Origin: an uncultured delta proteobacterium
GTDB lineage: Bacteria; Myxococcota_A; Polyangia; Fen-1088
Reading direction: 5' to 3'
NCBI GenBank assembly: GCA_963737265.1
Contig: CAVTRY010000020.1
Location: 33,559 to 97,558 of the forward strand
DNA: 64,000 nt
Position numbers and translations under genes: made by a program. Below, piece by piece: positions 33,341 to 50,251 of the stretch. Every line of letters starts with the position of its first letter. The stretch's first letter is position 1. The notes under the pieces are model-generated. The model worked only from the letters and a program-made list of their open reading frames with translations, did not search any database and was not told the origin of the DNA.

Positions 33341-33567
33341 CACGACGGCGGCGTGGACTAGCTAAGCTGAGCTGAGCATCTGCTATAGTTCCTGCCGATG
33401 TCGAGCGGCATGGAAAGCGGGGGTGCCTAACCGAAACGGGGGACATGGTAGAGGCCCAAGAATCTCGGCGGCGGACCGCCAAGATTCTCGGACTTGAAAG
33501 AAACTGGACAGGGCACGGAATTGGGCGTTTGTAGCGAGGCAAGCCACCCAGAGTTGGGCGGCGTCAA

Positions 33568-45234: not shown

Positions 45235-46394
45235 GCACATCAGATGTAACGTCCGCCTATCCAATCGAGTCGTCTGGCGAGGACGGCCTGGAAGCCCGCT
45301 GGCGCGGAGTGGTGGGTCGTCGTTCGTTTCTGAAGGGCGTGGGGCTGGCGGGCGCCGCGGCGGTCCCGGGGGCGGCGTTGTTCGCGAGCGAGGCGAGCGC
45401 CGCAAGCCGTGAGATCACCGCGGGCGATGTCGCAATCTTGCGGCTGCTGGCTGCGATCGAGTTGATCGAGACCGACCTGTGGCAGCAGTACAACGAGCTG
45501 GGTGGGGTTGACGGAGGCAACCCGGCCTACATGGCAGCGCTCTCGAATCTCGACTCAGACATGCCGCAGTACATCGCCGACAACACCGACGACGAGGAGA
45601 GCCATGCCGCTTTCCTGAACGCGTATCTCCGCTCCAAGGGCGCGCGGCCGGTGAATCTGGACGAGTTCCGGACGCTTCCCAGCAGCCAGGCCACCGGCGC
45701 GAAGCAGAAGGGGCGGCTGACGAATCTGCAGACGCTCGACGTCGACACGAGCTGGTATGTGCGCTACCGGAGCACCGAGAACCCCGATCTGGGGGCGACC
45801 TTCCCCCAGGCGGTGGACATCAAGCACGAGCCGGCGATCCCGCTCAACGACACCGACACTCCGCCAAGTCTGCCGGCGCCGGTCCCGCCGGTGGGCGCGC
45901 AGGAGACGCGGATGCAGGCGATCGCCAACACGGCGGGGTTTCACTTCGCTTACATCGAGCAGGGCGGCTCGAGTCTGTACAGCATCATGGCGCTCAAGGC
46001 CACCAGCCTTGAGGTGCTGCGGATTATCGTCTCGATCGGCGGTGTGGAGACCAACCACTTCTCGCTCTGGCACGACAAGGCCGGCAACGCCGTCGCGCAG
46101 CCACTGGCCGGGGTCACCGATCCCGAAACCGGCGTGACCTTCCCCGATCTGAACGCCAAGGGCGGCGAGCTGAACCAGACCAACCTGATCCTCCCCGAAC
46201 CGTGTGACTTCCTGCACAAGGATCTACCCCAATGCTCGATCGTACGACCCACCCTGGACGACAACGGGGGCGCCGTGGCCACGATCAAGAGCTTCACCGC
46301 CGACCGGCTGTTCGAGGGCCAGTCCCCGAAGTTCTTCAGGACCGTCCTCGAGCTGGCCAGAGAGGCCGACGCCGCCCAGCGCAGCCTCCGTTAA
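45231..46394 (+). CDS. Tat-exported ferritin-like domain protein
   Basis: GRRSFLK twin-arginine signal, ELIETDLW, DEESH, IEQGG and VETNH di-metal ligand pattern. Confidence 0.88.
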   Translation: MSTSDVTSAYPIESSGEDGLEARWRGVVGRRSFLKGVGLAGAAAVPGAALFASEASAASREITAGDVAILRLLAAIELIETDLWQQYNELGGVDGGNPAYMAALSNLDSDMPQYIADNTDDEESHAAFLNAYLRSKGARPVNLDEFRTLPSSQATGAKQKGRLTNLQTLDVDTSWYVRYRSTENPDLGATFPQAVDIKHEPAIPLNDTDTPPSLPAPVPPVGAQETRMQAIANTAGFHFAYIEQGGSSLYSIMALKATSLEVLRIIVSIGGVETNHFSLWHDKAGNAVAQPLAGVTDPETGVTFPDLNAKGGELNQTNLILPEPCDFLHKDLPQCSIVRPTLDDNGGAVATIKSFTADRLFEGQSPKFFRTVLELAREADAAQRSLR

Positions 46395-46510
46395 TCGCAG
46401 CGACAGAGCCGGCGGCCGCCGAGACTACACGGCCGCTAACCGACCACGCAGACCGGCCGCGGCTCATCTCGAGAGCCGCGGCCGATCCGCCCAAGCAAAA
46501 GGACACCACC

Positions 46511-46723
46511 ATGTTCACCGGAATCCTGCAACCCACGCATCTGATCATCCTCCTGGTTGTCGCCCTCCTGTTCCTCGGGCCCAAACGCCTCCCCGAGGCC
46601 GGACGCGCCCTCGGCCAGGGACTCAAAGAATTCAGAAGCTCGATCGCCGGGAGCCACCCCGACGACCCGCAGATCGCAGCGGGGCCCGACGTCACCCACG
46701 AAGACACCGCGCCGCACCAATGA
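46511..46723 (+). CDS. tatA: Twin-arginine translocase TatA
   Basis: RBS AAGGA and ALLFLGPKRLPEAGRALGQGLKEFR. Confidence 0.92.
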   Translation: MFTGILQPTHLIILLVVALLFLGPKRLPEAGRALGQGLKEFRSSIAGSHPDDPQIAAGPDVTHEDTAPHQ

Positions 46724-46752
46724 CGGGCGTCATTCGGTCGCGACCGAGCGCA

Positions 46753-48595
46753 TCTAGCTCCGCTAGGCCATTGAGAGGTTCACGGACGAGTCATCTTTTC
46801 AGGGGATGATGGCCGCCTGGTTGATGCGGGCTTGGAGTGCGTTCTCGAACGCTCGCCACGCTTGGGCGAGTGGGGTGCGCTGGGCGATGCCGGGTGGTAG
46901 CGCGGAGTCGAGTTCGGCGAGGGATGGGTTGACGATCCGCGTGTAGGTCTTGGTGAGAAAGACGGCCAGTCGGCGTCCCTCGCTGGTCAGCTCGTATCGC
47001 TGTGTGCGGGGGATCCGCTGGATGAACCGTTTGCGTCGCAGGCGGCGGAGGTCGTAGGTCATCTGGCGGGCGCTGTAGCCGGGGATCAGCCCGGCGATGA
47101 GCTCGCGCAGAGTGCGGTTCGTCAGGCCCGCGAATAGGTGCTCAAAGCAGCACAGGCAGGCGAGTAGCGCCATCGTACGCGGCTCGCCGAAGCGCAGGCC
47201 GGGGCGGGTAGGCCATCTTCGATGGATGGCAGCACCACGCGCTGCAGCGTCGTGGCGTCTGGCGCGCACTGGCACGCCTCAAGCTGATGGTCGAGGAACC
47301 GCTGGTTGACCTGGTGGCCGACCTGGACGAGCGCGTCCCAGTTGGCTTGGGTCAGGCGGCGGCCGATGCCGAAGTCGCGGGTGTCGTTGACGGTCGTTTC
47401 GGTGCGGAGTGCGCAGCGTTCTTTGAAGTACTGCTTGACCTTCGAGGCGCGGTAGTGAACCTGGATCGCCGGCTCGACGCCTTTGTTGAAGATCTTGGTG
47501 TGAAACCGCCCGGGGTCTGGCGGGAGACGCGCCGGCCGAACACGATCGCGACCTGGTCGGGACGCCCGAGGGTGAGCTGGTCGGGCAGGGTGCGCTCAAA
47601 CCACGCCCGGCCGGCCATCGGTCGGTCGAACATGCGGGTGTCGGAGATCTCGGCCTGGCGGAACGCCAGCTCGTGCGGGTAGCCTCGCTCCCGGTCCTCC
47701 GCGGTCAGCGGCGAGGGGAGCGCCGCCTGCCAACGGTCGAAGAACAGCTGCACGTCCTCCGCCTGAAGGCTCGAGCAGATGTCGGCCAGCGCCACCGGAT
47801 CCTCACACGCGGCGAACCCGTTATCCAGCGGTGTGAACGCGATCCCCCGCCGGGGGGCTTGGCGCTTGGCCCATTCGTTGCCGTTGAGGTATAGCCATAC
47901 CGAGAACGGCGCATACGCGGTCGTCTTCAGAAACGCGGGGCCCCAATCGGGATCGCGGATGTACCAGTAATAGTTGTTGGGGAAGATCGACTGGCGGGCG
48001 TACTCGAAGTGCGGATGGCCGTCGGGTCCCCCGTCACGCCACCCACGCCAGGCCGAGGTGCGCTCCTGGGCGATCCCGACCATCACCACTCCGAAGCGGC
48101 CCTCTGCCTCGGCCGCCTTGAAGTATTCCCGGGCGATGTCTTCCTTCACGTCGCCCTTCTGAAAGCGCACCACCGGGATCTCGTAATCGACGATGTACTG
48201 CTCGATCGCGGCCACATACCAGCGACCGATCCTGCCCAGCACCACCGGCGAGGGGATCGGAAACCCGCGATCGAGGAGAAACCGGATGACCTGAAACTTG
48301 GTCTGCAGCCGCGGCACATACCCCTGAAAGAACAACCGGTCCACCGACCGGACCTCGAGGGTGACATGATCGGCGAGTAGGCTTGAGATCGTGGCCACGG
48401 GCGTCTCCTAACGATCGCAAGGTCGTTTGCCCCACGAGGGCCTCACATCTAGACCGGAGGCTAACCGTGGCCACCACCCCGCGAGCACCCCAGCGCTCCG
48501 AAGGAGCGCCCCGTTCGCGAGCGAGGCTCATACCCGAACCGCCACCACCTACCGGCCCTCCACTCGGCGGTATGAGGCTCGCTCGCTAACTCTAG
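46753..48595 (-). mobile_element. Unclassified insertion element without TIRs, bounded by TCTAG, inserted between tatA and tatC
   Basis: TCTAG at 46753-46757 and 48591-48595. Contains one reverse-strand gene and a hairpin-rich 190-bp end. Confidence 0.72.
46799..48398 (-). CDS. Putative transposase with C-terminal winged-helix domain (two frameshifts, ~47510 and ~47215)
   Basis: Reconstructed ~530 aa: DRLFFQGYVP, YYWYIRDPDWGP, LNGNEW, KVKQYFKE..LRTETTVNDTRDF and MTYDLRRLR. Confidence 0.75.
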
Positions 48596-48612
48596 AGTCG
48601 GCAGCGAGCGTC

Positions 48613-49552
48613 ATGGCGTTACCGCTCCGACCGGTCAGCCACGAAGCTCGTCTGCCGCTCCTTGAGCACGTGAGCGAGCTCCGGACGCGGTTGGTCATCA
48701 CCCTCGCTGCGGTGGTGGTCGCGTTCGGGTTTGCGTTCTGGCAGAACCATGCGCTCCTGAACGTCCTGAACCGCCCGCTAGTGCGTGCGAGTGCGGGGGC
48801 GCTCAAGCACTCGCACGGTCCGCTCGCCCAAACCGCCCGCGTGCAGCAGACCCTCGGCGTCGCATTGGACCGCCAACGCGTCGCGTTCGAGCTCCTCGCG
48901 CGGTCCTCGGCTCCCCTCGCCGCCGCGCAGCGCCAAGCGTTGAACTCAGCCGCCCGGGGCGACGCCGCGGTCGTAGCCGTCACCCCTACCGAGCCCCAGG
49001 GCCGCCAGCCGGTGACCCTCGGCCTGGGCGAGCCGTTCATCCAGACGCTCACCGTCGCCGGCTACTTCGCGCTGCTGTTCGCGCTGCCGGTCGTCCTTTG
49101 GCAGCTCTATGCCTTCATCACCCCCGCCTTTAGCCCCGGCGAGCGCCGCGTCGCGCTGCCACTGATGGCAATGGCGCCCCTCCTGTTCATCGCCGGAATA
49201 GCATTTGGCTATTTCGTCGTGTTGCCCGGTGCGGTCGGGTTTCTGCAGAACTTCAACGCGAGCTCCTTCGATGCGCTCGTGCAGGCCAGTACCTACTACC
49301 GATTCATCCTGCTGACGCTGCTGGCAGCCGTTCTTCCAGATTCCGGTTGCCGTCATTGGACTCACCCGCACAGGGATCGTGAGTACGCGTCAGCTGCGCA
49401 AGCACCGCCGCCAGCCCATCGTTGCCCTCGTCGCGCTGGCGCTGTTGCTACCCGGCACCGACGTCGTGACCACGTTCCTCGAGCTCGTCCCCATGCTGGT
49501 TCTCTACGAGCTCAGCGTGTTCGTCGCCGGCCTGTTCGAGCGCCGCTCATGA
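48613..49552 (+). CDS. tatC: Twin-arginine translocase TatC (frameshift near 49330)
   Basis: LLEHVSELRTRL, EPF, WQLYAFITPAF...ERR, then FQIPV...LYELS in the shifted frame. Confidence 0.88.
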
Positions 49553-50251
49553 GCCAACGCACGCGGACCAACGATTCCCCCGGCATCCTCGTGAACTCCG
49601 TGTGACGTCGCGCGGCCATTAGCACGAGAGATCAACTCGATGGTGCACGCAAAAAGTCATCGCGACCAGCGCCGTCAATCAACTCAGTGCGCCCTTCCGC
49701 CGGCCTTGAGACCCAAGAGGGTGGCGCGACGAGGACAAGGAACACGAAGGCATGCGATTGCCCACTCTTGAGCGCCAGCTGATGGGTGTGGTCGGCGCCG
49801 GCGCTCGCATGCCGATTCACCACGAGGCCCAGCCCCCGGGGAAGCATCCACGCCACGGCACCTATCCCGTAGCCGGGCCCCGGCACGCCCACCAGGAATC
49901 CAAACGGGGCGGCAAGGTTACCGGCGCGAGGTAACCCAGCAGCCCGTCGACCGGGCCATGGAAGAGGATCGCTCGTATCAGGGCGAAGCCGAGCCATTGA
50001 ACGCTCGTGATTGCCGCTGCGTTTCCGCTGGCGCGTCGCGAACGTCGATCAGCTTAGTGAGGATCATCCCAACGCCGATGCCGGCACTAGCGGTGCAGAA
50101 ATGTAAAACCGGTCATCCTTCTGCGGCAGGGGCTAGACCCTATGGAGGATGATTCGTGTCGGCGTTGAAGGCCGGACCTCGGTCGCATTTTGCGGGGGTT
50201 TGACTGGCCGGAGAGTGGCTCCGGCTGACCCCATACGAAGGAGGTCCGGCC

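Follow-up and report, generated by a model that had tools for sequence, protein, structure and literature searches.

How has a segment with a single gene and no inverted repeats come to lie between tatA and tatC in an uncultured delta proteobacterium, and what kind of enzyme could have placed it there? The locus lies in a stretch of 64,000 nucleotides, referred to below as the window, from contig CAVTRY010000020.1 of assembly GCA_963737265.1 (GTDB lineage Myxococcota_A, Polyangia, Fen-1088; positions 33,559 to 97,558 of the forward strand). The tatA-tatC spacer in the window is split by an inserted segment with a single long gene on the minus strand. An earlier note, made from the letters of the window alone, proposed that this segment is a transposon of a poorly described class, and the many copies found since, their sharp ends and an empty allele of the locus agree with that proposal. 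It is suggested here, with a probability of about 0.6, that the segment belongs to an undescribed family of insertion sequences that uses a Rep_trans-like tyrosine nuclease and is inserted beside CTAG with no true duplication of the target.

A mobile unit with constant ends

Relatives of the element were collected by scanning one genome per species. The scan returned 186 candidate stretches, 96 of which encode a relative of the protein, and 78 distinct loci were retained. Almost all of these come from Solirubrobacterales, Thermoleophilia or unclassified Actinomycetota metagenome-assembled genomes, often several per genome. To map the ends, the window element and 300 bp on either side of it were compared with the 78 loci by blastn. 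In the full-length loci the similarity starts at query positions 299-313 and ends at 2135-2149, which corresponds to window positions 48595 and 46754. Read in the orientation of the gene, 40 loci and the window share the consensus flank-CTAG-NN-(T/A/C)TAGCGAGCGAGCCTCATACCGCCGAG ... CC(T/A)AGCGGAG-CTAG-flank. No inverted repeats were found when the two ends of the window element were compared, as the earlier note had said.

An empty form of the locus was found in public sequencing runs, which were searched with the left flank only; the contigs of four runs were compared with the window over 46000-49400. The contigs of two runs (X1 and X2) cover both occupied junctions and show no difference from the window; they may derive from the source sample and so are not independent support. 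The contigs of the other two (X3 and X4, from one study, with depths of 42.7 and 21 and flanks that are about 1% different) carry the locus without the element, CTAGATCTAG. They represent a sister strain that lacks the element at the same locus. This empty allele joins 46757 to 48591 via a single A and reads GCATCTAGATCTAGAG, that is GCAT-CTAG-AT-CTAG-AGTCGG. It is the only one found. Among species-level relatives no orthologous empty site was usable, as the flanks have diverged too far (the best match of the window flank is 26-75 nt, and the flank of L016 has 69% identity).

The earlier note had expected that removal of the segment would restore one CTAG (GCATCTAGAG). The empty allele does not bear this out; it retains both CTAGs, so both lie outside the inserted unit, and therefore the element proper is 46758-48589 (1,832 bp, minus strand; TTAGCGAGCGAGCC...CCTAGCGGAG in gene orientation). 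The same limits follow from the shared similarity edges in the 40 other loci and from the X3 and X4 contigs, which skip 46758-48590. A bounded insertion was correctly recognised, with sharp ends in 40 loci, and its limits had been set too wide, at 46758-48595. The window element is flanked by CTAG on one side and by NN-CTAG on the other. The CTAG at 46754-46757, which adjoins the end of the element 3' of the gene and is kept in the empty allele, is found in every subfamily looked at. The NN and CTAG at 48590-48595 (CT CTAG on the plus strand), which adjoin the hairpin end, differ among copies, and the CTAG here is loosely conserved.

The element is therefore a discrete mobile unit of 1.83 kb that is present in many copies and has one gene, constant asymmetric ends and no inverted repeats. 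In one genome, G041, there are 11 full-length copies that are about 100% identical, and a second subfamily in the same genome, A2, has seven full-length copies that are 99.7-99.9% identical to a reference copy (L144). Judging from these sets of near-identical sequences, the family is active now. Short isolated matches to the left end in G041 and G043 were considered as footprints of lost copies and rejected, because they are the left ends of other subfamilies.

Hairpins at the ends

The non-coding end upstream of the gene is 191 bp long (48399-48589, minus strand) and is rich in hairpins. The earlier note had described a subterminal stem here, and the stem proved longer than described. Its arms, 48513-48534 and 48569-48590, are 22 nt long and 91% complementary, and the hairpin as a whole (48513-48590) has a conserved C.C mismatch. 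Both arms, mismatch included, are invariant in 19 diverse copies of subfamily A, and the core motif GCCTCnnACCGnCnAG is retained in relatives from Mycobacterium and Burkholderia. An invariant hairpin with a recurring GCCTCnnACCGnCnAG would be compatible with a DNA site that is recognised by the protein. No covariation was found in the long stem among the 19 diverse copies, as the stem is invariant, and a structure in RNA or DNA is neither backed nor refuted by this result. An Rfam search of 46600-48750 gave no match, only a chance-level row with an E-value of 0.51.

Three smaller features occur where the earlier note had placed them. These are a mini-hairpin, GCGCTCC/GGAGCGC, at 48493-48499 with 48503-48509; a 10-bp inverted repeat, 48391-48400 with 48465-48474, that bears GTGGCCAC at the start codon; and an internal copy of CATCTAGA at 48446-48453. 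The last of these lies in a further small hairpin (48440-48461) that holds an internal CTAG (48449-48452) in its loop. A CTAG in the loop of this hairpin is found in all subfamilies, and its neighbouring bases are independent of the flanks. It had been suggested that the internal CATCTAGA is a copy of the target that selects the site and co-varies with it. This idea is rejected, because the motif is fixed within a subfamily while the flanks vary, and only the CTAG core is shared.

At the other end, a CAAG or CTAG is present 4-5 nt inside the element, before the final junction, in all subfamilies. In the window the junction reads CTAGC-TCC-GCTAG (46754-46766), and this sequence suggests that the CTAG of the flank could pair across the junction with the CTAG inside the end.

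The protein and its candidate active site

Full-length relatives of the protein are 533-534 residues long. The family contains 8,466, 3,872 and 718 clusters at 50% identity for E-values of at most 1e-3, 1e-10 and 1e-30, respectively. In a second database 3,296 of 8,000 scored candidates match; the only name given is 'hypothetical protein', and many of the contigs are about 2 kb long. Relatives were also located by tblastn on 24 plasmid records of Rhodococcus, Mycobacterium, Burkholderia, Paraburkholderia and Caballeronia. Where these have a name it is again 'hypothetical protein', with the exception of one weak partial match over a gene for an ArsR family transcriptional regulator. Searches of Pfam, NCBIfam, PHROGs and the PDB, the last by sequence and by profile, gave no family match and only weak winged-helix rows, including a weak Pfam HxlR row. 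The 30 nearest ESM-Atlas clusters are unnamed and have no common Pfam family. In agreement with the earlier note, which saw no DDE, HUH, DEDD or recombinase motif, the protein has no match to any such family in Pfam or NCBIfam.

What can be said of its fold comes from predicted structures. An AlphaFold2 model of the full-length protein, built with 25 diverse sequences, has a mean pLDDT (predicted local distance difference test) of 87.3. It consists of two modules (residues 12-183 and 243-376), each with a strand, a helix, four strands and a helix, followed by a winged helix at about residues 385-500, and there are terminal helices. The C-terminal winged helix had been anticipated in the earlier note. 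This winged helix-turn-helix domain (46890-47240, minus strand) matches HxlR (3df8) with a VIA-align Z of 9.7, and MarR and PadR chains as well. A model of residues 1-380 only has a pLDDT of 81.0 and a predicted template modelling score of 0.82. When this model was compared with the PDB by Foldseek, ranks 1-4 were the four chains of 4cij (RepSTK1), with E-values of 2.7e-5 to 1e-4 and a probability of 0.99; all rows below these have a probability of 0.57 or less. In VIA-align the top match is TBP (Z 9.0, 179 of 189 residues, root-mean-square deviation 4.0), and RepSTK1 (4cij_A; Z 7.0, 194 residues, deviation 4.7) and RepDE (4cwc_A; Z 6.9, 181 residues, deviation 4.9) are among the few rows that cover both modules. 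Matches among predicted viral structures are TBP-fold proteins and Rep-like replication proteins of Inoviridae. The crescent of ten antiparallel strands, five per module and connected as in TBP, that defines the Rep_trans superfamily is thus present in the model, with moderate scores.

The conserved residues point the same way. D20, E250, K322, Y324 and R332 are invariant among 25 sequences down to 26% identity, and E334 is present in at least 90% of them. All of these candidate active-site residues recur in five subfamilies, one of them at 27% identity. In the model D20-R21 lies on strand S1, R247-Q248-x-E250 on S1', K322-x-Y324-x-K326-E327 on S4' and L331-R332-x-E334 on S5'. According to Carr 2016 (PMC4797284), strand 1 is central in the Rep_trans sheet, with strands 2-5 on one side of it and with strand 6 next to it, followed by strands 8-11. 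The catalytic tyrosine is on strand 10, with an Arg and a Lys two residues to either side, and the metal is held by three carboxylates on separate strands, D46, D142 and E214; the corresponding residues are on strands 1, 6, 10 and 11. The likeness of this fold to TBP is remarked on in the same source, and the site, a Tyr and three carboxylates, is likened to that of type II topoisomerases. The Rep_trans motifs listed in Wawrzyniak 2017 (PMC5714925) are N' (D), I (RxD), II, III (YxKxxE) and IV (W/LxRxE).

The pattern of the family would agree with this strand for strand. D20 (codon 48339-48341, minus strand), on the central strand S1, is the predicted equivalent of motif N' and a proposed metal ligand, as is E250 of RQxE (codon 47649-47651, minus strand), on S1', for motif I. 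K322-x-Y324-x-K326...R332-x-E334 (47398-47436, minus strand) would correspond to motifs III and IV, with Y324 (47428-47430) as the proposed catalytic tyrosine. Both Rep alignments start with the Asp of strand 1 (D9 in RepSTK1, D46 in RepDE) at about residue 20 of the model. Motif II was not identified in the family. The earlier note had guessed at a resemblance to Rep_trans from a single motif, KQYFKE..LRTETTVN, which is indeed present at 47398-47436; the guess is supported by the Foldseek ranking and by the position of the invariant residues on the strands of motifs N', I, III and IV. From the models, the sheet domain would seem to be distantly related to the rolling-circle initiators of the Rep_trans type.

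Could the protein simply bind DNA, with a TBP-like saddle and a winged helix, while the element is moved in trans, or could the element be a miniature replicon of the rolling-circle type that has become integrated? The best structural match is TBP (Z 9.0), which only binds DNA, and both Rep_trans and Rep-Arvir proteins are initiators of plasmid or virus replication with a hairpin origin beside the gene (PMC4797284, PMC13107129). However, the invariant acidic, basic and tyrosine residues are clustered on the central strands in the Rep_trans pattern. The element has only one gene, its copies are chromosomal and scattered with fixed ends, and no other conserved gene lies alongside, apart from a further family member at some loci. 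Either version of this explanation is considered very improbable.

Probable insertion beside CTAG and the question of a duplication

For the target site 52 distinct insertions were tabulated. Nine were dropped: six (L006, L050, L065, L069, L074 and L079) because another element follows, so that the right side reads CTAC, and three (L031, L054 and L060) because the right end was mis-set. With the window this leaves 44 sites. The left tetranucleotide is exactly CTAG in 31 of these and a one-mismatch variant in 12. In subfamily A2 the right side is always CTAG and the left side is unrelated (CAAG, CAAT, GCAC, TTAG, GTAC, CTAG, GAAG). Copies on plasmids of Burkholderiaceae also have CTAG on the right, and their left flanks are TAAG, GACA and ATAG. 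Since the left flanks are unrelated to the right ones in both groups, there is no duplication at least in those. A neighbouring CTAG is constant on the side 3' of the gene, in every subfamily looked at, and is only loosely kept on the other side (CTAG exact in 31 of 44, unrelated in A2).

The simplest reading of these junctions is insertion immediately beside a CTAG, which ends up after the end 3' of the gene, without duplication. Subfamily A would favour sites in which a second CTAG already exists 6 nt away (CTAGNN|CTAG). Such sites are rare. The genome from which the window comes has 5,054 CTAGs compared with 22,050 expected, a 4.4-fold under-representation by base composition, and G041 has 23 free CTAGNNCTAG sites compared with 1,736 for the reversed control pattern GATCNNGATC. 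Both bases after the left CTAG equal those after the right one in nine of the 44 insertion sites, and the second base after the left CTAG is G in 25. At the 16 free CTAGNNCTAG sites of the window's own genome the first bases are equal in eight, both bases are equal in three, the second base is G in seven and nine are palindromic. The flanks of the insertion sites resemble these free sites in their statistics, and this resemblance was counted in favour of no target duplication, as was the empty allele, in which both CTAGs either existed beforehand or were left behind.

Several results weigh against the proposal of a Rep_trans-like nuclease that inserts without duplication. The fold scores are moderate; the Foldseek TM-scores are 0.20-0.35, a Z of 7 is middling by the scale of the tool, and TBP, which is not an enzyme, outscores the Rep proteins. 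The Rep_trans model of Pfam, PF02486, was not matched by the open reading frames of the window, by P0002 or by any of the 25 members of the set A1, and was absent in the search of the element's own genome. The equivalence of the motifs rests on strand order and alignment ranges. Single-stranded intermediates, a covalent tyrosine link and the activity itself are putative. The window copy is single in its own genome and frameshifted as assembled. No strand or orientation bias was detected from the GC skew of the flanks (21 of 47 positive), which is a weak test. A scan of metagenome contigs for circle or tandem junctions returned one short stub only; contigs drop rare forms, and the scan is thus evidence neither way. 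The sole empty allele is one base off the occupied form exactly at the junction (AT instead of CT on the plus strand). Finally, the left and right CTAGs are followed by the same base in 27 of the 44 sites, where shuffling gives a mean of 11.0 and none of 5,000 shuffles reaches the count. Among ten young copies in G041 with both flanks, the first base is equal in nine and both bases are equal in four.

This excess of equal first bases is unexplained by pure insertion beside CTAG, and a 5-bp duplication could account for it. Might the element move by cut-and-paste with a true duplication of 5 or 6 bp (CTAGN or CTAGNN), both copies of which are left as a footprint upon excision? The equal first bases, including those in the nearly 100% identical copies of G041, would be expected, and the empty allele is a tandem CTAGAT-CTAGAT in gene orientation. 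Extra CTAGs are clustered within 30 nt of the junctions (nine compared with 1.97 expected from the far flanks, p 2e-4, at 8 of 52 sites). Tandem remnants of the site occur in the right flank of L005 (...GCGGAGCTAG-CGGAGCTAG, with a repeated CGGAGCTAG), the left flank of L006 (CTAGGA-CTAGTA) and the right flank of L044 (CTAGAG-CTAGAT), and may stem from several visits to a single site. However, the second base agrees at chance level (13 of 44, where shuffling gives 12.5) and varies among identical copies, there is no duplication at all in A2 or in the Burkholderiaceae copies, and free CTAGNNCTAG sites have a similar bias in the first base (8 of 16). In addition, identical odd left 6-mers are shared by different loci (CTACAG by L036 and L095; CTATAG by L087 and L088). 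A true duplication is for these reasons considered unlikely for the family.

The graded agreement of the two flanking bases (61% at the first, chance at the second) and the 6-mers, which look as if they were inherited at different loci, would also fit conservative site-specific recombination of a double-stranded circle. In such a process a CTAG overlap of about 6 bp would form and its mismatches, like the coupling sequences of Tn916, would be resolved by replication, so that one junction keeps the bases of the donor and the other those of the target. CTAG is present on both sides in subfamily A, and the Rep_trans site resembles that of type II topoisomerases (PMC4797284). However, a single CTAGNN is expected in the empty site and two are observed, A2 has no left CTAG, no circle junction was found in assembled contigs and the protein has no recombinase-like domain. 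Recombination of this kind is regarded as distinctly improbable.

A possible mechanism

If insertion beside CTAG by a Rep_trans-like nuclease is accepted, the following sequence of events can be proposed. The enzyme, probably a dimer as Rep_trans proteins are, would use Tyr324 to cut DNA and be linked to it as a 5'-phosphotyrosine, and D20, E250 and E334 would hold a metal. Three cuts would be made, each directly 5' of an xTAG: at the first bases of the element (NN|TTAG), after its last base (GCGGAG|CTAG) and in the target (NN|CTAG). The free 3'-OH ends would then join the tyrosine-linked 5' ends, and the donor would be resealed as ...CTAGNN|CTAG..., as in the X3/X4 allele. The element would leave as one strand or as a circle, closed on itself, and either one strand or both may move. 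The reverse reaction at a new CTAG would give an insertion immediately beside it, with the CTAG not duplicated. The target of subfamily A, CTAGNN|CTAG, would mimic the CWAG-N4-5-|CTAG at the element's own end. The scheme would follow that of IS200/IS605 or IS91, with an enzyme of a different fold.

Comparison with known systems

The family resembles the Rep_trans proteins (RepD/RepDE of pT181-type plasmids and RepSTK1, 4cij and 4cwc, as well as the MOB_T relaxases) in its predicted ten-stranded, two-module, TBP-like sheet, with an Asp on the central strand, an acidic residue on the strand beside it and, in module 2, [R/K]xYxK on strand four and RxE on strand five. Both have a separate DNA-binding domain and a hairpin of defined sequence beside the gene. 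They differ in that the catalytic domain of the family is about 380 residues long with large insertions, compared with about 250, and does not match PF02486. The spacing from Tyr to Glu is 10 in the family and 23 in Rep_trans, and the DNA-binding domain of the family is a winged helix. The gene of the family is located on a chromosomal, multi-copy element of 1.8 kb with fixed ends, whereas Rep_trans genes are located on plasmids, phages or conjugative elements.

A similar arrangement of domains exists in the archaeal Rep-Arvir proteins (DUF7845; RepSNJ2 of pleolipoviruses). According to Wang 2026 (PMC13107129), the catalytic domain of these proteins lies at the N-terminus and has a TBP fold, a winged helix of the MarR type comes after it, the catalytic motif is K-H-Y, and there are acidic residues towards either end of the catalytic domain; the proteins were found by structure only. 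The family shares this layout, a K-x-Y motif, the acidic residues near both domain ends and the need for structure to be recognised. The structure searches with Rep-Arvir in that source gave the same pattern as here, with TBP-fold proteins and Rep-like proteins of Inoviridae. Rep-Arvir proteins are, however, replication initiators of archaeal viruses and plasmids, while the family here is bacterial and behaves like insertion sequences; by sequence the two gave no match. The corresponding Pfam model, PF25227, gave no row at an E-value of 10 or less for P0002, P0063 or P0113, with the presence of the model in the Pfam copy used being unverified.

Elements of the IS200/IS605 type, such as IS608, have no inverted repeats and make no duplication; they carry subterminal hairpins, insert beside a fixed tetranucleotide and leave a donor that can be resealed, and their transposase is an HUH Y1 enzyme of about 150 residues. 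The present element likewise has no inverted repeats, has subterminal hairpins and is located beside a fixed short sequence without duplication (a 5-bp duplication is possible in subfamily A). It differs in having a 533-residue, non-HUH protein with a TBP fold, for which no Y1_Tnp or HUH match was found, and no strand bias was detected. In IS91, ISCR elements and Helitrons the target tetranucleotide adjoins one end. These elements have neither inverted nor direct repeats and use an HUH Y2 transposase that is related to rolling-circle initiators, according to PMC5714925. The family has no match to HUH Y2 and would use the other, unrelated initiator fold.

For the remaining systems the searches were negative. 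The DEDD (RuvC-like) transposases of IS110/IS1111 and their guide RNA have no counterpart by Pfam or by the Rfam search of 46600-48750, and the fold differs. CTAG targets are known from IS630/Tc1 elements, which have a DDE transposase, terminal inverted repeats and a TA duplication; no DDE match was found in Pfam, and there are no inverted repeats here. Pfam and NCBIfam gave no phage-integrase or resolvase match of the kind expected for tyrosine or serine recombinases of the Tn916, Tn554 or IS607 type. No description of a Rep_trans-like or TBP-fold transposase, or of an element of such a kind, was found in the literature covered, which did not include supplements that may contain family lists.

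The window copy and its surroundings

The gene for the 533-residue type of protein occupies 46799-48398 on the minus strand. Three frames are needed to read it, from 48398 to about 47517, from about 47516 to 47206 and from about 47205 to 46799. Alignment to four intact copies places the loss of one base in each of two runs of five C on the gene strand, at 47512-47516 and at 47201-47205. The contigs of X1, X2 and X4 carry an extra G behind 47200, for which other copies of the element are a possible source. Single-base losses in C homopolymers are the commonest error of long-read assembly. Both frameshifts lie in such runs, therefore they may be assembly errors and the gene may be intact in the cell. 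It is also possible that the window copy is dead.

The neighbours lie outside the element. The tatA gene (46511-46723, plus strand) matches Pfam TatA_B_E with an E-value of 1.2e-15. The tatC gene (48613-49605, plus strand) matches Pfam TatC with an E-value of 9.2e-35 over profile positions 1-151 of 208 only, and is apparently truncated by a frameshift near 49327. In the tatC region the X3 and X4 contigs have 13 more letters than the window behind 48996, one fewer at 49240 and five more behind 49329. Either this copy of the tat operon is decaying or these are assembly errors.

Some relatives occur in pairs. Directly after the right end of an element A, and in the same orientation, there may be an element B, which encodes a second, distantly related protein of the family (about 27% identity) and has the left end CCGGTGTCCGGGACTTCGCCCGG... 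and a CTAG at its other end. Such pairs are present in five loci of Solirubrobacterales (L050:4650-6600, L065, L074, L079 and L080) and on a plasmid of Mycobacterium riyadhense (L126:2867-3984), and at each junction of A and B the CTAG that flanks element A reads CTAC. The pairs could be composite units or could arise from a strong preference in insertion. In L050, L079, L006 and L069 the repeat that follows the right end was also considered as an IS630-like insertion into TA; this was rejected, as it is the distant member of the same family. In L054, L066 and L067 other insertions, of 1.9-2.8 kb, interrupt the copies of the element. The stub returned by the circle scan (L130:1060-1115) consists of 12 nt that resemble the right end, then CTAG and CG, and finally the initial 33 nt of the left end, and the direct repeat CCGCCGAGCG lies on both sides of it.

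Implications

To our knowledge the enzymes of insertion sequences are all of the DDE, DEDD or HUH type or are serine or tyrosine recombinases. There are two unrelated folds of rolling-circle initiators, and only HUH is known to have been recruited for transposition, in IS91, IS200/IS605 and Helitrons. A broader proposal, which is tentative and falls somewhat short of even odds, is that the family represents a further class of prokaryotic transposase. It would combine a Rep_trans-like tyrosine nuclease of TBP fold with a winged helix and would move a repeat-less single strand from CTAG to CTAG. Small hairpins in the DNA would mark the cleavage sites, with one CTAG or CAAG paired to the CTAG that is cut, and the choice of target would be partly guided by DNA as in IS608. 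Thousands of proteins now called 'hypothetical', from Actinomycetota, Burkholderiaceae and further bacteria of soil, would be transposases of this class.

If the main reading, an insertion-sequence family with a Rep_trans-like enzyme, is correct, the second initiator fold, the TBP-like one of Rep_trans, has also been recruited for transposition. It would give a function to 8,466 clusters of unannotated genes, including genes on plasmids of Rhodococcus, Mycobacterium and Burkholderia, and would account for contig breaks that repeats induce in soil metagenomes. It would also provide a compact enzyme that places DNA beside a short fixed sequence.

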